From NCBI GenBank assembly GCA_964396165.1, contig CAYNEF010000009.1:52354-84353 (forward strand): DNA of 32,000 bases. Direction: 5' to 3'. Numbering within the stretch: position 1 is the first letter of the stretch; the number at the start of each line of letters is the position of its first letter. Source of the DNA: an uncultured Pseudobdellovibrionaceae bacterium (GTDB lineage Bacteria > Bdellovibrionota > FAC87 > UBA2466). The notes beneath the pieces were generated by a model. The model saw nothing but the letters and a program-made list of their open reading frames with translations, ran no database searches and was not told where the DNA came from. Both the position numbers and the translations under genes were made by a program. Below are positions 3,406 to 23,192 of this stretch, piece by piece.

Positions 3406-4056
3406 TTATTTTTTCCACTCACTCGAGAAAGCTGTTTTTCCTTCAGGAATTTGGGGATAGTTCTGCTTTGCTTTCTCGGCAAAAGGTTTAAGTTGGTTCG
3501 TTTGTTCTAAATGCTTCAGGAAATCAAAGGCCTGATCGCTCGGAAATCTGCTTTCTTGCGTATTCCCGCGATCGCGACGCGCGCGGTTCATATACAGCTC
3601 CGGATCTTTATGAAACTCCGGATCGGAAAATACTCGTTGCTCTAGGAAATCTAATATTTTTTCTCTGCCCTCTCTGGAAGGAGGGTAACGTAAATCGGGT
3701 GATTTAAAATAGGCCCGGGCAGTTTTTCTCAATTCGGGGCTTTTTGCTTCAGCTTCCTCGATGGCTTTTGCTTCTTCTGCGGCTTTGCGTTCTTCCGCTT
3801 CTTTAACTTCTCTTTCTTTACGTTCTTTCTCCTCTCTGAGTTCCTTTTCTCTGGATGTTTTTATTGTATCAAGAATGTATTCGCGTACTCCATCACTTAC
3901 CCTGGCAGCTTTAAGATCTGCATCCACAGCGGCTAGTATTTTTAACAGTTCAGGACAGGTCTCATCTGCGTAACTTCTTGGAGTATAAAGAGTAACAAAC
4001 ATTAAAAGGCTGCAGGTGATGAGTTGAAGAAGAAGACTAAAATTTTTCTTAATCAT
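3406..4056 (-). CDS. hypothetical secreted protein with a Glu/Lys-rich helical segment
   Basis: Signal-peptide-like N-terminus (MIKKNFSLLLQLITCSLLMFVTLYTPRSYA) and a central EK-rich low-complexity stretch. It starts 9 nt downstream of the cytochrome-like gene, with AAGGA before the ATG. I recognise no family. Confidence 0.55.
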   Translation of the reverse strand: MIKKNFSLLLQLITCSLLMFVTLYTPRSYADETCPELLKILAAVDADLKAARVSDGVREYILDTIKTSREKELREEKERKEREVKEAEERKAAEEAKAIEEAEAKSPELRKTARAYFKSPDLRYPPSREGREKILDFLEQRVFSDPEFHKDPELYMNRARRDRGNTQESRFPSDQAFDFLKHLEQTNQLKPFAEKAKQNYPQIPEGKTAFSSEWKK

Positions 4057-4488: not shown

Positions 4489-6570
4489 ATGAGTGACGTC
4501 CTCGGTAACTCGATTACATACATTAAAGGAGTGGGCCCAAAGCTTGCTCAAGTGCTGCACAAAAAGGGAATCGACACGCTTGAGGATGCACTTTATTTTG
4601 TGCCGCGTCTTTATGAAGACAGAAGGCGCATTATCCCTATCGCTTCGCTTCAGCCCAATACTACAGCCACAATTTCTGGAAAAGTTGTCAGCGCAAAAGA
4701 AGTGGGATTTACGCGTTACCAGAAACGTTTTGAAGTAACGCTAGCTGATGCGACAGGACGTACCGTTCTTACCTGGTTTAGAGCGTATCCTAGTCTGAAA
4801 GAAGAGTTCAAAGTGGGAACTTCCTTTCTCGTGAATGGAGAAGTGAAGTTGTACCGCGGGCTTTCGCAGATCACCCATCCAGATTACGAAAAAATTGAAG
4901 AGTTTGTAGACGGAAAACCAAAGGCTTCGATTAATTTTGGGCGCATTGTTCCTGTTTATAGCGAGACCGAAGGCTTGCACCAGAAAACAATTCGCAAAAT
5001 CATGGGGGAAGTTGTCCGTACTTCCGTAAAAGAATTGCATGACGTCTTACCGGAAGAAATGCGTGCACGTCTGGAACTTCCCACACTCAGACAAAGTTTT
5101 GTGGATCTCCATTTTCCAAAAACATTGCCGGAAGAAGGGCTTCCGTTAGATGCCCTGAAAAGAATCATCTTTGAAGAGTTCTTCGTATTGCAACTTGGCT
5201 TAGGCTTAAGAAAAAGAGAAACGCAAAAGAAAACGGCGCCTGCGTTAGTAAATAAAAACGGTGCTTTGGAAAAGTATATTGCAGGCCTTCCTTTTTCTCT
5301 TACAGGAGATCAGAAAAAGGTAATCGAGCAGGTGAATCACGATATTGCTCGTCCGCTCATGATGACAAGACTTGTGCAAGGGGATGTGGGATCTGGAAAA
5401 ACAGCCGTGGCGTTTGCAGCTGTCTCTGTCACAGCAAGTTCTGGTTACCAAACTGCGATCATGGCACCCACGGAATTACTCGCCATTCAGCACGCAAAAA
5501 GTGCTGCGGCGTTATTGCCTGACTTAAAAGTTGCACTTCTTACGCATAGTACGGCTAAGGACAAAGAGCTTCACAAGACGATTCACTCAGGCGAAGTGAG
5601 TTTGGTGATTGGAACGCATGCTCTCTTTCAAGAAAACGTAAAGTTTAAAAAATTGGGTCTTGTGATTGTGGATGAACAGCACCGCTTTGGGGTAGAGCAA
5701 CGCGCGGATTTACTTAAAAAGAGCGAGAAAGAAAATGCGCATCTTTTAATGATGACGGCCACTCCGATACCGAGAACTCTTGCGCTGACACTCTATGGAG
5801 ATTTGGACTTAAGTATCATCCGGGAAAAACCGCAAAACCGCAAAAAAGTGAATACGACGATTTTAAAAGATCGGGACTTGCCACGCGTTTATCAAAAGAT
5901 CAACGAGACTGTCGCAAGGGGCGAACAGGTTTATATAATTTATCCTTTGATTGAGGCGTCTGAAAAATTGGAATTAAAATCAGCGACTGAGATGTACGAG
6001 AAGCTTCGAAAAGAAATATTTCCTACGCTGAAACTTGCTTTGTTGCACGGTAGGATGAAGGGACAGGAAAAAGAAGACATCTTAAAGGCATTTAAGAACC
6101 GCGAATTTGATATTTTAGTTTCTACTACGGTAATTGAAGTAGGGATCGATGTTCCCAATTCGACGTTAATGGTGATTGAACACCCTGAACGTCTGGGGTT
6201 ATCGCAGTTGCACCAGTTAAGAGGACGGGTGGGTCGTGGAGACAAGCAAAGTACGTGTTTACTTGTGGTGGATAAATTCGTTTTACCTCGTTTAAGAGTA
6301 ATGGAAACATCGGATGATGGCTTTGTGATCGCGGAAGAAGATTTAAAATTCCGTGGGCCAGGAGAGTTTTTGGGTACAAGACAAAGCGGTCTTCCTGGTT
6401 TCAGGGTAGGGCATATCTTAAGGGATGCATCCTTATTGGAACTAGCGCGAAGTGAAGCGGAAGCAATTCTTTTGAAAGATCCCACACTGGATTTAAAAGA
6501 AAATTCCGGCATTCGTAAAATGGTAGAAACCCGCTGGAAACAAAAAATTGAGAGACTTAGAGGAGGGTAA
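4489..6570 (+). CDS. recG: ATP-dependent DNA helicase RecG
   Basis: Helicase motifs GDVGSGKT, VIVDEQHRFG, MTATPIPRT and QLHQLRGRVGRG, with an N-terminal wedge/OB region. I prefer the ATG at 4489 (MSDVLGNS...) over the in-frame TTG at 4450 used by the ORF track. Confidence 0.93.
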   Translation: MSDVLGNSITYIKGVGPKLAQVLHKKGIDTLEDALYFVPRLYEDRRRIIPIASLQPNTTATISGKVVSAKEVGFTRYQKRFEVTLADATGRTVLTWFRAYPSLKEEFKVGTSFLVNGEVKLYRGLSQITHPDYEKIEEFVDGKPKASINFGRIVPVYSETEGLHQKTIRKIMGEVVRTSVKELHDVLPEEMRARLELPTLRQSFVDLHFPKTLPEEGLPLDALKRIIFEEFFVLQLGLGLRKRETQKKTAPALVNKNGALEKYIAGLPFSLTGDQKKVIEQVNHDIARPLMMTRLVQGDVGSGKTAVAFAAVSVTASSGYQTAIMAPTELLAIQHAKSAAALLPDLKVALLTHSTAKDKELHKTIHSGEVSLVIGTHALFQENVKFKKLGLVIVDEQHRFGVEQRADLLKKSEKENAHLLMMTATPIPRTLALTLYGDLDLSIIREKPQNRKKVNTTILKDRDLPRVYQKINETVARGEQVYIIYPLIEASEKLELKSATEMYEKLRKEIFPTLKLALLHGRMKGQEKEDILKAFKNREFDILVSTTVIEVGIDVPNSTLMVIEHPERLGLSQLHQLRGRVGRGDKQSTCLLVVDKFVLPRLRVMETSDDGFVIAEEDLKFRGPGEFLGTRQSGLPGFRVGHILRDASLLELARSEAEAILLKDPTLDLKENSGIRKMVETRWKQKIERLRGG

Positions 6571-6657
6571 TTAATTAGCATATTGTGGAAGAGGGGGTAA
6601 GCGCTCCAACCCCGAAGTCGCGTTACCCCCTCTTCCACAATATGCTAATTAATTACC
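6566..6657. repeat. hairpin A: perfect 35-bp inverted repeat (6566-6600 / 6623-6657) around a 22-nt loop
   Basis: Checked base by base: 35/35 Watson-Crick pairs. The left arm contains the recG stop codon (TAA 6568-6570). No T-tract follows. The loop GCGCTCCAACCCCGAAGTCGCG is the reverse complement of a sequence homologous to the loop of hairpin B. Confidence 0.9.
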
Positions 6658-11040: not shown

Positions 11041-11193
11041 TTTTGCCCTCTCGTTTATCTCATCCATTTTCCGCTCTTGGGGCACAACCTACGACAAAAC
11101 ATTCTATCGTGGCCAGAGCGTCCTACTAGGGTGCTTTCTACACAAGCATAGATTCTGTAAATTGCTTTGATAATAGGAGTTCCGAATAGCAAA

Positions 11194-11271
11194 AACGGGT
11201 GGCACATGCATTTCTAGTGATGGCGCGCCAAGAGCGACAGCACTAGAAATGCGTGTGACAGGACCCGTGTT
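11194..11271 (+). repeat. structured element C1 (GGGTGGC...GACAGGACCCG family), plus-sense copy upstream of the HD-GYP gene
   Basis: Layout is AACGGGTGGC, 14 nt, TGATGGCGCGCCAAGAGCGACAGCA, 12 nt, GTGACAGGACCCGTGTT. A 17-bp stem (11203-11219 / 11241-11257) has one T-G pair. ACGGGT/ACCCGT can close the base. Confidence 0.75.
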
Positions 11272-11384
11272 TCTCGCTCATACACTAATTACGCGCAGCA
11301 GTATAACGCGATACTCCATTGTGAAAAAACAATCATTTTTTATTCTAGTAAATATGCCGATAAGCCTTAGAGGTAATACGGCCC

Positions 11385-13325
11385 ATGTCCTTGTCACACG
11401 ACGTACATTCCAGACATACATTAGTGGTCTTTAAACAGACACCAGACTTGAAAAAAGTCGAAATCTCGCACGACTGGAATACAGCTGTCATTCAATCTCA
11501 CGATCAACTCCTTGCTTGCGTAGATCGCGCATACAAAAACGCACAAAGAATCGTCGTAATCGTATCCGAACTGGATTACGAAAAAACCCGCGTACTACTT
11601 AACTTAAGAATGCAGCGGGAAAACTCTGTTGCCTACGGCCTTCTTGTCGTCGCAAAAGATCCTACTAAATTCATGGAAAAAGAAGGCGGCCCCGCCGAGC
11701 TTCTCGATGCAGTAGGGGATAAAGAAGCCAGAAAAAATATTCAGATATCCCTTCTACGTGCCGTGCGATTTCTTTCACTTTCTGAATCAAAAGGAATGCA
11801 AAAAATCGGACAACGCACACTGGAGAGAATGAACGAAATATTTATCGATCTCTCTGCCGAAAGAAACTCAGAAAAACTACTCGGAAAAATTTTAACGAAA
11901 ACGATGGAAGTCACCAATGCGAAATCCGGTGCGCTTTTCATGGTGCAGGAAACAGATGGCGAAATGTATTTCCGCCTGAAAATCACAGCAGAACAAACTA
12001 AAGAACCTGTCTTTCAAAACACAACGTTAAGAGTTGTAGAAAACAGTGTATGTGGTTATGTCGCGTTGACAGGAAAAATCCATAATATTTCCGACATCAG
12101 CAATATGCGGGCAGGTTCCATCCCACAAATGCACCGTCAGTATGATTATGATTACAACGGCACAGCTGTTTGCATGGTTACGGTTCCCTTAAAAAATAGC
12201 AGACACGAAGTAATCGGCGTGTTGCAACTTGTAAATAAAAAAGACGAACGAGATGTTTCTGGAAATGGAATATGCCCATTCGAGGGAGAAGACGAAAGTA
12301 TTTTGATGTCTTTCGGAACACAAGCTGCCATCTGTTTGGAAAATGTGGATTTGTATGCGGACATCCAAAGACTGTTCGAAGGTTTTGTGAGAGCTTCCAT
12401 TACGGCCATCGAATCCAGAGATCCCAGCACGGGTGGTCACTCAGAACGTGTCGCTAAAATGTCTGTAGCTCTAGCACGCGCAACCACAGAAGTGGATATC
12501 GGCATTTACCGCTCTGTAAAATTTAAAGAAGAAGAAGTTCGAGAGCTCGAATACGCAGCGATGTTGCATGATTTCGGAAAAATCGGTGTACGTGAAGAAG
12601 TTCTCGTGAAAGCAAAAAAACTCTACGCCCACCAGCTCGAAGGAATTCAAGAGCGTATTAAAATTTGTAAAGCGGCTGCGAAAATCAATTATCTCGAAAA
12701 AAGATTGAGACAATCGGGAAATGATTTGGATTTAGAAAAAGACTACTTAAATAGAGTTGCTCAGATTGAAGGATATAAAGATATTATCTTGCAGGCAAAT
12801 GAACCAACTATCCTCATGAATGAAAATATTCAGGTTCTGGATAAGATAAGATCTGAGCAATTGCTGCTGCCTGATGGATCTAATATCGCTCTTCTTACAG
12901 AAGAGGAATTTAAAGCTCTATCTGTAACTAAGGGCTCGTTGACTGAGAATGAACGTGTGGAAATCGAATCACATGTTCGACATACGTATCAATTCTTAAA
13001 AATGATTCCTTGGACTAAGGATTTTAAACACCTGACTGAAATTGCTTACTGCCATCATGAGAAGTTGGATGGCACCGGGTATCCACGCGGTTTAGTTGCG
13101 CATGAAATTCCTTTGCAGTCTAAGATCATGACTATTGCAGATATATTTGATGCTTTAACGGCATCTGATCGTTGGTACAAAGAAGCTGTACCTACTGAAC
13201 GTGCGATTGAGATTCTTTTTAAAGAAGTAGAAAAAGGTAAGATTGATCCTGTCCTCTTTGAGCTGTTCGTAGCTAAGAAAATATTTGAAATTGCCCAGCC
13301 GAAAACTCTTCACCAAGTCGCCTAA
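11385..13325 (+). CDS. HD-GYP domain c-di-GMP phosphodiesterase with a GAF domain and a receiver-like N-terminus
   Basis: HD motif AAMLHDFGKIG and HHEKLDGTGYPRGL (HD-GYP). A central GAF-like region (SGALFMVQE...GVLQLVNKK) is present. The N-terminal ~130 aa look like a CheY-like fold without the acidic pocket. Confidence 0.9.
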   Translation: MSLSHDVHSRHTLVVFKQTPDLKKVEISHDWNTAVIQSHDQLLACVDRAYKNAQRIVVIVSELDYEKTRVLLNLRMQRENSVAYGLLVVAKDPTKFMEKEGGPAELLDAVGDKEARKNIQISLLRAVRFLSLSESKGMQKIGQRTLERMNEIFIDLSAERNSEKLLGKILTKTMEVTNAKSGALFMVQETDGEMYFRLKITAEQTKEPVFQNTTLRVVENSVCGYVALTGKIHNISDISNMRAGSIPQMHRQYDYDYNGTAVCMVTVPLKNSRHEVIGVLQLVNKKDERDVSGNGICPFEGEDESILMSFGTQAAICLENVDLYADIQRLFEGFVRASITAIESRDPSTGGHSERVAKMSVALARATTEVDIGIYRSVKFKEEEVRELEYAAMLHDFGKIGVREEVLVKAKKLYAHQLEGIQERIKICKAAAKINYLEKRLRQSGNDLDLEKDYLNRVAQIEGYKDIILQANEPTILMNENIQVLDKIRSEQLLLPDGSNIALLTEEEFKALSVTKGSLTENERVEIESHVRHTYQFLKMIPWTKDFKHLTEIAYCHHEKLDGTGYPRGLVAHEIPLQSKIMTIADIFDALTASDRWYKEAVPTERAIEILFKEVEKGKIDPVLFELFVAKKIFEIAQPKTLHQVA

Positions 13326-13356
13326 AAATAATTTTTAAGGATGAGATTTTAAGATG

Positions 13357-13434
13357 AACACGGGTCCTGTCACCTGCGAATGGGATGCTGTCGCTCTTGG
13401 CGCGCCATCACCCCATCCACAGGCGCCACCCGTT
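13357..13434 (-). repeat. structured element C2, minus-sense copy downstream of the HD-GYP gene
   Basis: The reverse complement aligns without gaps to C1. All three conserved blocks are identical, both variable blocks differ, and the variable blocks are mutually complementary. All 3 stem mismatches are G-U on the minus strand. Confidence 0.75.
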
Positions 13435-13545
13435 CCCCGTTTTTTTCAATCCATAGTTCTAACGGAAAAAAAACAGTTCTATAAAGTCAGCGGAATGTAG
13501 CAGAGTGGTTCTATTAAACTGATTTATAAAATTTGTAAGTGAGAT

Positions 13546-13723
13546 CCTTTCAGGAAGAGGAGTGTGGGTGGCGCCTTCGTTAAAACCAGTGGCCCCGGGT
13601 AGTGATAAGCAAACTAGCAATGAAAACGAAACTTGCAGAAAGATCTCACAGCGAAGATCCAGTCCAAGGGGAGCATCTGGTTACCACGCAGGTGACAGGA
13701 CCCGCACTCCTCTTCCTGAAAGG
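13546..13723 (+). ncRNA. candidate structured RNA C3 (178 nt), a large member of the GGGTGGC...GACAGGACCCG family
   Basis: A 24-bp closing helix, CCTTTCAGGAAGAGGAGTGTGGGT (13546-13569) / ACCCGCACTCCTCTTCCTGAAAGG (13700-13723), has a single U-G pair on the plus strand. It shares GGGTGGCGCCT and CGCAGGTGACAGGACCCG with C2. Internal hairpins lie at about 13609-13636 and 13642-13659. Confidence 0.55.
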
Positions 13724-23101: not shown

Positions 23102-23192
23102 AATTAAAAGGTGGGGATTCCAGGCGGAGTAGTTAATGCGACTGGGGTTCGGAGCACTTAACTACTCCGCCTGGAATCTCCGCCTTTTAATT
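23102..23192 (+). repeat. hairpin B: 35-bp inverted repeat (23102-23136 / 23158-23192) around a 21-nt loop, in the fliE-fliF gap
   Basis: 33 Watson-Crick pairs plus 2 positions that are G-U only on the plus strand (23112/23182 and 23115/23179). The loop TGCGACTGGGGTTCGGAGCAC is homologous to the reverse complement of the hairpin A loop. No T-tract follows. Confidence 0.9.

Follow-up and report, generated by a model that had tools for sequence, protein, structure and literature searches.

A previously uncatalogued family of bacterial hairpin repeats with an invariant asymmetric core and covarying stems

The window that we analyzed is a stretch of 32,000 nt from an uncultured Pseudobdellovibrionaceae bacterium (contig CAYNEF010000009.1, positions 52,354 to 84,353 of the forward strand). 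It contains three copies of a hairpin repeat: element C1 (11194-11271, + strand) and element C2 (13357-13434, - strand), which bracket a gene with the Pfam domains GAF and HD-GYP (11385-13325, + strand), and a third element (13546-13723, + strand) farther downstream. These belong to a previously uncatalogued family of hairpin repeats that is absent from Rfam. Its members share a 17-nt core, and their stems differ from copy to copy and covary strongly. We think it probable that C1, C2, and the third copy represent a widespread family of palindromic elements, akin to the repetitive extragenic palindromic (REP) sequences and the Rickettsia palindromic elements (RPEs), that is recognized as a folded single strand.

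Results

Members of the family in diverse bacteria

When we compared the window to a related locus (L002), only the termini of the elements were conserved, so we scanned one genome per species for the two core blocks at a suitable distance (GGGTGGC-N28-58-GACAGGACCC). All members of the family were thus found by their exact core. The scan gave at least 138 matches in at least 120 loci, and 92 of the 138 passed a strict filter, in which the interior must form a single hairpin that is closed at both ends and the flanks must continue the pairing. A covariance model built from the strict copies, R1, has 83 matches at E <= 0.01 in 100 loci, and it also matches C1 (33.6 bits, E = 1.9e-6) and C2 (31.2 bits, E = 8e-6), or E ~1e-6 for both. 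An earlier reading of this DNA from its sequence alone (the sequence-only reading) had staked its proposal on further copies having complementary variable blocks; the strict hairpins and the matches to R1 bear this out massively.

Among the matches listed, the hosts span at least 12 phyla. Judging by the titles of the records, the hosts include Solirubrobacterales, Thermoleophilaceae, and Conexibacter, as well as Acidimicrobiia, and the Gammaproteobacteria are represented by Legionella and Coxiellaceae. Other hosts are Omnitrophota, Myxococcota, a "Deltaproteobacteria" RIFCSPHIGHO2 genome, Planctomycetales, Rokubacteria, Latescibacteria, Krumholzibacteriia, Nitrospirales, Treponema, Melainabacteria, Phormidium, and Nanosyncoccus. 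Several loci have two or three copies per 8 kb.

As a negative control, we ran the same pattern against viral contigs, and none of the 52 matches was a convincing hairpin. Plasmid and phage collections held no similar sequence, and as there were no carriers in any of these three collections, we rejected carriage by phages or plasmids. No Rfam 15 family reached the gathering threshold on the elements, whether in the window or in the 18 loci with elements that were scanned; at E <= 10, there was only a chance match to mir-219 (E = 8.9). No Rfam family explains the elements. Searching species-representative genomes for the exact flank plus central block gave no match. A search of metagenomes for the apical 17-mer GGCGCGCCAAGAGCGAC gave at least 120 matches, and all of those listed were chance matches in GC-rich DNA without a hairpin or the cores. 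Searching the literature for sequence strings turned up primer coincidences only.

An invariant internal loop between covarying stems

Every member has the same plan, in which an outer stem leads to the pairing of GGGU with ACCC, then to an internal loop and a C-G pair, and finally to a long inner stem with an apical part. The outer stem is 4-24 bp long, and its sequence varies (CCGC, TAAC, TAGT, and others) and covaries. The internal loop is invariant and asymmetric (2x5): in GGGU-GG-C ... G-ACAGG-ACCC, the GG faces ACAGG. The two blocks, GGGTGGC and GACAGGACCC, make up the asymmetric 17-nt core. The elements are 58-141 nt long (47-138 nt from core to core). We rejected the idea that the lengths are multiples of 3; in high-GC genomes there is only a weak excess of lengths that equal 1 mod 3 (35/20/15).

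To measure covariation, we used a fixed-register alignment of the basal 25 pairs. The two partners can pair in 78.8% of cells, as compared to 58.7% in shuffles and ~41% if the partners are slid. Both sides have changed in 515 cells, versus 206 in shuffles, and such changes occur at 20 of the 25 pairs; the remaining five are the invariant pairs of the core. Thus, the covariation of the stems that had been suspected from C1 and C2 holds, strongly, across the family.

Because the members were ascertained by the exact core, the invariance of the core has to be judged from secondary copies and from orthologous pairs, which are described below. In ~1 Mb that holds ~100 exact copies, just four structured copies have 1-3 mismatches in the core. 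In one locus, the 3' core is tandemly duplicated (GACAGGACCCgttttcacctGACAGGACCCgttttcc, L050 3662-3770).

The apical part is lineage specific, though members in different phyla have one motif in common, GCGCGCAG-loop-CGAGCAC or GCCCGCAG-loop-CGAGGAC. The "conserved loop" that was noted in the window (GGCGCGCC-AAGA-GCGAC) is a variant of this motif. It is indeed identical in C1 and C2, but across the family it is a lineage-specific apical module. Similarly, the "quasi-palindrome" ACNGGNCCNGT is not a feature of the family; the conserved unit is the asymmetric internal loop.

Two other ideas about the structure were tried and rejected. If the stems were guides copied from nearby DNA, then long local matches would be expected, and the longest local matches are 9.2 nt versus 8.8 nt in shuffled controls. 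And when the K-turn, loop E, the tetraloop receptor, the known small ribozymes, and Y RNA were compared to the core, none of them fitted; Rfam gave no support for them.

Mismatches favor one folded strand

We derived the helices of 90 distinct family members with G-U pairs forbidden, so the method favors neither strand. On the strand that reads GGGTGGC...GACAGGACCC, the isolated 1x1 mismatches include 45 G:U versus 17 A:C (p = 5e-4), as well as 14 G:G versus 1 C:C. Relative to genes, the copies are oriented both ways, so a strand bias in mutation would largely cancel, and selection on one folded strand is the simpler reading. Together with the covariation of the stems, the asymmetry supports the earlier suggestion that the hairpin is under selection as a single strand, and that this is the GGGTGGC strand.

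The three copies in the window

C1 and the reverse complement of C2 align without gaps, with the layout AACGGGTGGC, 14 nt, TGATGGCGCGCCAAGAGCGACAGCA, 12 nt, GTGACAGGACCCGTGTT. A repeat search describes the pair as 78-nt arms that are 77% complementary with 2,085 nt between them. On inspection, the flanks and the center are identical and the differing stems are each self-complementary, just as the sequence-only reading described them. The 25-nt center is the apical module TGATGGCGCGCCAAGAGCGACAGCA, which lies on the + strand at 11218-11242 in C1 and, as an identical copy, on the - strand at 13386-13410 in C2; it occurs exactly twice in the window, versus zero times expected from 100 shuffles.

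C1 was delimited by its sequence, the repeat search, and folding. Its outer stem is the predicted closure of ACGGGU with ACCCGU, and its other parts are the 5' core GGGTGGC (11197-11203), a 17-bp inner stem around the apical module, and the 3' core GACAGGACCC (11257-11266). C2 has the same cores and apical module with another inner stem; in + strand letters, it reads GGGTCCTGTC at 13362-13371, the center at 13386-13410, and GCCACCC at 13425-13431. We checked the inner stems by hand: 17 pairs in C1, including one U-G, and 14 pairs in C2, including three G-U or U-G. All of these wobble pairs would become A-C on the other strand. Folding agrees. The GGGUGGC strand of C1 folds at -43.5 kcal/mol (z -7.5), versus -38.0 kcal/mol (z -5.3) for the opposite strand, and for C2 the values are -47.5 kcal/mol (z -5.0) and -29.7 kcal/mol (z -1.15). 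The claim that G-U pairs are confined to this strand stands for C1 and C2, and the mismatch counts for the 90 members lean the same way.

The third element, which the sequence-only reading missed, is larger. Its cores are at 13566-13572 (GGGTGGC) and 13694-13703 (GACAGGACCC), its interior is branched and is 121 nt long, and its outer stem has 24 bp (13546-13569 pairs with 13700-13723). Its predicted fold has an energy of -85.6 kcal/mol.

There are a few other observations about C1 and C2. About 120 nt upstream of C1 is CGCTCTTGGGGC (11072-11083), which looks like the apical module in reverse complement (CGCTCTTGGCGC). This might be what is left of an inverted (- strand) copy that has decayed; R1 gave no match there. 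Within C1, at 11200-11215, TGGCAC-N5-TTTC is near to a -24/-12 promoter for sigma-54, and the same window has two genes for sigma-54 activators. We judged the promoter to be a coincidence: it lacks the GC at -12, and other copies read TGGCGC. Finally, a Logan contig with an identical HD-GYP gene (SRR12487046_108935, 2,191 nt; L001) starts and stops inside the central blocks of C1 and C2, which implies that the inverted repeats break short-read assembly.

The HD-GYP gene is a resident gene

The sequence-only reading took the HD-GYP gene, which encodes a predicted cyclic di-GMP (c-di-GMP) phosphodiesterase, to be placed like cargo between inverted ends. The inverted geometry is real, and the gene annotation of the window confirms that no transposase or recombinase is there: no transposase, integrase, or reverse transcriptase is found among the window's genes. 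The window is a stretch of ordinary chromosome that has carB, greA, and recG; genes for a short-chain dehydrogenase (SDR), a symporter, and a porin; the GAF-HD-GYP gene; the genes of two sigma-54 activators and of Mla proteins; and a flagellar cluster.

The relatives contradict the idea of cargo. The order of the HD-GYP gene and the following sigma-54 activator is kept in three of them (L002, L003/L004, and L005). In L002, whose HD-GYP protein is 92% identical, there are elements at the same three places with different interiors (for example, the ortholog of the third element has an interior of just 30 nt). In L003/L004 (83% protein identity), the synteny is kept and all three elements are absent; the downstream spacer is 242 nt, versus 666 nt in the window, and the upstream spacer is 143 nt versus 398 nt. 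Even in L005, at 64% protein identity, the gene order is retained. So, when the presence or absence of the segment in relatives is checked, it is the elements that vary while the gene order stays. The HD-GYP protein also has hundreds of full-length homologs at 50-64% identity, and the few named sources are Bdellovibrionales, Bdellovibrionaceae, and "Deltaproteobacteria" metagenome-assembled genomes. Furthermore, the promoter-proximal sequences of both downstream genes are conserved and are located beyond the elements, so C1 and the third copy lie in spare intergenic DNA rather than in conserved leaders.

Could the HD-GYP gene nevertheless be mobilized or inverted by the 78-nt ends, as part of a composite or invertible unit? 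Besides the inverted arrangement itself, one might point to the contig that breaks in both repeats (L001) and to a similar geometry in an Omnitrophota locus (L035), where a copy is followed by lpxB and an oxidoreductase, then an inverted copy, and then a further copy ~190 nt on. But the bracketed genes in L035 are core genes, and in two convergent genes there, each stop codon is followed by a copy. Inverted pairs arise trivially from single copies in adjacent intergenic regions, and the spacer downstream of the HD-GYP gene by itself holds a -/+ pair. A composite transposon or an invertible cassette should vary in presence or orientation and should come with a recombinase; here, the gene order is conserved in relatives with and without elements and the window has no recombinase. 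We consider a composite unit to be extremely unlikely. Because copies settle in neighboring spacers, the inverted pairs are a by-product, and the HD-GYP gene is a resident like any other, flanked on either side by copies that happen to be there. It is context, not cargo.

Copies lie past stop codons and inside genes

Our gene calls are reliable in low-GC loci; those in high-GC loci are heuristic, with coding flanks identified from the periodicity of GC content at third codon positions. In low-GC loci, the copies lie 2-80 nt past stop codons, with 7 cases in which the favored strand is sense and 11 in which it is antisense. Of the copies in high-GC loci, 14 are between convergent genes, 12 are between co-directional genes, and just 1 is between divergent genes. 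Another nine copies in high-GC loci are in frame within genes and are stop-free in one reading frame (five sense and four antisense). The neighbors are unrelated housekeeping genes, with the largest shared family in just 6 of ~85 loci, which is why we ruled out a riboswitch or other cis-regulator of c-di-GMP genes.

The in-frame copies give typical translations: AGG...RQDP in the sense orientation, and RVLS...RHP or AGPV...PPA in the antisense orientation. For example, in a Melainabacteria genome with 31% GC, a GC-rich copy (L114 724-791) is in frame in a membrane-protein open reading frame (ORF) of 730 codons. It reads ...QAGGTGREGPRADSSGGLPVGDRTR... and adds ~24 hydrophilic residues between hydrophobic segments. 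A DnaE-like ORF in a Thermoleophilaceae chromosome (OY970394.1; L075 2035-5235), with DNA_pol3_alpha, finger, HHH_6, and OB domains, has up to three copies in mixed orientation, of which one is inside HHH_6 and one follows the OB fold. In two loci (L097 and L082), an E2-E1 fusion has a copy in the linker that joins its lipoyl and E3-binding domains, and another two (L043 and L066) have a copy at the same place in RecG.

Splicing or bypass of the in-gene copies is not supported: we found no gene that is split by a frame-breaking copy, with the proviso that ascertainment favors in-frame cases. Where the flanks are on the same strand in differing frames, they look like separate genes, such as an aldehyde dehydrogenase and an acyl-CoA dehydrogenase in L101. 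In that locus (2317-2386), as well as between a pyrK-like gene and pyrD (L085 864-924), one stop-free frame spans both genes and the element that separates them. Fusions mediated by the element could explain this, and so could frames that are open by chance in high-GC DNA.

A terminator or another structured RNA?

C2 lies 31 nt past the stop codon of the HD-GYP gene, and a run of seven Ts (13440-13446, + strand) begins 6 nt after its outer stem, on the 3' side on the HD-GYP mRNA strand. This would be a putative tail for an intrinsic terminator, and the ortholog of C2 in L002 has a T-run as well (GCCACCCGTTTTTG). The sequence-only reading offered a terminator as an alternative. For C2 this is plausible, as there is a hairpin and then T7 on the mRNA strand; C1 and the third copy do not fit. 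C2 may double as the terminator of the HD-GYP gene. If it does, it acts from the strand opposite to the selected one, whose fold has a z of only -1.15, and a simple terminator scanner passed C2 over because it exceeds the limits set for the loop and the stem. The family as a whole has no orientation preference relative to transcription.

Like Rho-independent terminators, C2 and several low-GC copies are GC-rich hairpins just after stop codons with an A-run or T-run beside them. Rho-independent terminators, however, have no conserved asymmetric core, the high-GC copies of the family have no T-runs, and some copies are inside ORFs.

More broadly, the elements might be host-selected structured RNAs (3'-end, terminator, insulator, or protein-binding elements), with an RNA-binding factor that reads the GG/ACAGG loop and the apical module while the stems are only spacers. 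This would account for the excess of G:U over A:C on one strand, for the strong covariation, for the retention of the core at orthologous sites while interiors and flanks change, for the copies right after stop codons, and for the T-runs 3' of C2 and its ortholog. Purine-rich internal loops are typical of the RNA motifs that proteins bind, and the elements have such a loop. On the other hand, the favored strand is sense about as often as antisense, whether in low-GC loci (7 forward and 11 reverse) or among the in-frame copies (5 sense and 4 antisense), and the copies inside ORFs would be left unexplained. C2 would terminate the HD-GYP transcript on the disfavored strand, and C1 and the third copy are not in the leaders of the downstream genes but upstream of their conserved promoter regions. 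Neither a match to an Rfam family nor a recurrent neighboring gene was found. So we think that a structured RNA is unlikely to be the primary explanation.

Cores persist at orthologous sites

In 11 pairs of loci from different species, copies are at orthologous positions. The core is 100% conserved in all of these pairs, even though the flanks are 70-87% identical and the interiors range from 95% identical down to 26%. The interior of C2 is 43% identical to that of its ortholog in L002, as compared to 41% for random pairs. Given that the neighboring protein is 92% identical, this implies that, at some sites, another interior has taken the place of the old one, with the core and the site kept. 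Upstream of lepA, a filled site (L051) and an empty site (L076) differ by an indel of ~87 nt with no obvious target duplication. In another comparison, a full element (L071 2112-2185) corresponds to a short hairpin, GGGCGCGGAGCGGCGCC, that aligns with its apical part (L019 ~3690-3740).

Interiors that are swapped at fixed sites would be expected if the elements were attC-like sites of an unrecognized integron-like system that uses a tyrosine recombinase and acts on single strands. The likeness to a folded attC site is considerable: paired, conserved terminal boxes; an asymmetric unpaired spacer; a terminal hairpin of variable length, with 47-138 nt from core to core; a strand-specific structure; and locations at the 3' ends of genes, directly after stop codons. 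Also, some orthologous sites have unrelated interiors (26-43% identical). But the ends of the elements, NNNCGGGT and ACCCGNNN with variable N, are not the RYYYAAC and GTTRRRY boxes, so the R/L (R''/R') box consensus of the integron is missing. Copies are in both orientations and also inside coding sequences, the genes that they flank are syntenic core genes instead of cassettes, and we saw no arrays, let alone same-orientation arrays next to intI. Neither the window nor the DNA within 8 kb of ~90 copies had an integrase. This explanation seems quite improbable to us, more so than a structured RNA.

Palindromes of another type

The window also contains two long palindromes of another type, at 6566-6657 and 23102-23192. 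They have 35-nt arms that are 100% and 94% complementary, respectively, and that show no relation to one another, and their loops of 21-22 nt are reverse complements of each other at ~18 of 21 positions (CGCGACTTCGGGGTTGGAGCGC and TGCGACTGGGGTTCGGAGCAC). TTCGGAGCAC is common to the loop and to the apical module of the L123 element, and other apical modules have GAGCG/GAGCAC in common with the loop. L003 does not have the first palindrome, which begins at the stop codon of recG, and L002 does not have the second, whose place in the window is between fliE and fliF.

Discussion

We favor the view that the elements are REP/RPE-like and are read as a folded single strand. This would most likely be single-stranded DNA, because the orientation of the copies is independent of transcription, yet the wobble pairs are on one strand. 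A trans-acting, structure-specific enzyme would recognize the foot of the hairpin, and mobile copies would settle where they do little harm: past stop codons, in spacers between convergent or co-directional genes, or in frame in the linkers or loops of proteins. Copies could additionally serve as terminators or insulators, with C2 as a candidate for the HD-GYP gene. The enzyme might be of the Y1/HUH type, as the GTGG directly 5' of the inner stem matches the GT[AG]G foot of the REPs that are bound by REP-associated tyrosine transposases (RAYTs), which are Y1/HUH enzymes.

The likeness to REPs goes beyond this foot. As described in PMC3733652, REPs are found downstream of ORFs, with convergent and unidirectional gene pairs favored; they have G-T pairs in their stems; they form inverted dimers; and they occur in frame in DnaE2 and in repair genes. 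PMC6006769 gives the rule that GTAG or GTGG lies 0-2 nt 5' of a GC-rich hairpin, and it also mentions in-frame insertions of REPs. Our elements share the following with REPs and bacterial interspersed mosaic elements (BIMEs), the repeats whose transposases are the RAYTs (TnpA_REP): a GC-rich hairpin with a GT[AG]G foot (GG-GTGG-C and then the stem in 92/92 copies, which is so by construction of the search), G-T stem pairs, inverted dimers, multiple dispersed copies just downstream of ORFs (14 between convergent genes versus 1 between divergent genes), and in-frame copies in genes for DNA replication and repair.

There are also differences from REPs. The elements have a second invariant block at the 3' side (GACAGGACCC, 10 nt) and an outer stem that pairs across the foot, which creates the 2x5 internal loop. 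The tag of a REP is unpaired, and the predicted fold of our elements has the tag's GT paired with the AC of the 3' block. REPs are single hairpins of 20-40 bp with a tag at one end, and ours are 47-138 nt from core to core. Furthermore, the host phyla that we found (Thermoleophilia, Acidimicrobiia, Omnitrophota, Bdellovibrionota-like bacteria, and others) are outside those named in the excerpts of PMC3733652 and PMC6006769.

RPEs, as described in PMC3733652, provide a precedent: they are palindromes that occur both in intergenic DNA and, in frame, in genes for functional proteins, where they encode 20-30 extra residues in loops or linkers. RPEs differ from our elements in that they are confined to one genus and in that their copies are alike over their whole length. 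Here, only the core is fixed (plus the apical module within a lineage), the stems differ, and the family spans phyla.

Another possible analogy is with the insertion sequences (IS) of the IS200/IS605 family. In IS608, a hairpin is accompanied by a short guide 5' of its foot that pairs with a tetranucleotide 3' of it. In our elements, GGGT could pair with ACCC in a way that resembles the pairing of guides with cleavage sites at the subterminal hairpins of IS200/IS605 ends, which are processed by the Y1 transposase TnpA. Unlike those ends, the elements have no IS body and no tnpA or tnpB nearby, and both "ends" would be on one small hairpin. Miniature inverted-repeat transposable elements (MITEs) are a poorer fit, as they have conserved terminal inverted repeats and a target-site duplication, and the outer stems of our elements differ between copies and covary.

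Several observations weigh against the view that we favor. First, no Y1/HUH enzyme or other candidate was linked to the elements when we searched all ORFs in ~1 Mb with a regular expression for HUH...Y. No ORF with this motif lay next to a true copy in that DNA; in a REPtron, by contrast, repeats flank the gene for their cognate RAYT. The sole hit is a RAYT/IS200-like Y1 transposase (NHVH ... YIDTNP) in a Lawsonibacter genome (L087 4092-4580), and the pattern match ~100 nt away from it is a coincidence, without a hairpin, inside a ybaK-like gene. Second, the elements, at 58-141 nt and with a second conserved block and an outer stem, are unlike classical REPs, which have 20-40 nt and a 5' tag only. 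Third, a 17-nt core that is identical in at least 12 phyla is, to our knowledge, far more conserved than any described family of REPs. Fourth, neither a target-site duplication nor a clean insertion boundary was seen in the comparisons of the window to L003 and of L051 to L076 (a single, moderately diverged empty site). Fifth, the retention of the core at orthologous sites while the flanks diverge looks like purifying selection at the level of the host rather than the decay of selfish DNA. Finally, orientation is only weakly related to local GC skew (55:35, p = 0.03), and gene strand confounds the relationship.

A bolder proposal is that the bipartite core (GGGUGG-C / G-ACAGG-ACCC) is the recognition site of a widely transferred machine that acts on folded single-stranded DNA or RNA in at least 12 phyla, and that keeps hairpins at fixed sites while sometimes swapping their interiors, including inside essential genes. 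We put this forward tentatively; it is possible, but we would not bet on it. If it is true, then the elements stand for a mobile or recombination system of a new, structure-guided class, or for a new and ubiquitous motif of structured nucleic acid, and not for another pair of a RAYT and its REP.

However these readings fare, the family is unusual. Dispersed palindromic repeats such as REP, RPE, and Correia elements are usually restricted to one lineage, with copies that are alike along their whole length. Here, an identical 17-nt core is found in Thermoleophilia, Omnitrophota, Bdellovibrionota-like bacteria, Spirochaetota, Melainabacteria, and Patescibacteria, while the rest of the hairpin is free to vary provided that it still pairs. 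The core persists at orthologous sites even in coding sequence, where synonymous changes would be free. The combination of an invariant core, stems that need only to pair, and the survival of the core points to a conserved partner that reads the folded strand. Identifying it could bring to light a new transposase or recombinase that works on single strands, or else a new RNA-binding system. In the meantime, the covariance model is ready for annotating the elements, which matters because they break short-read assemblies, create spurious ORFs, and are predicted to add 20-30 residues to proteins such as DnaE, RecG, and E2.

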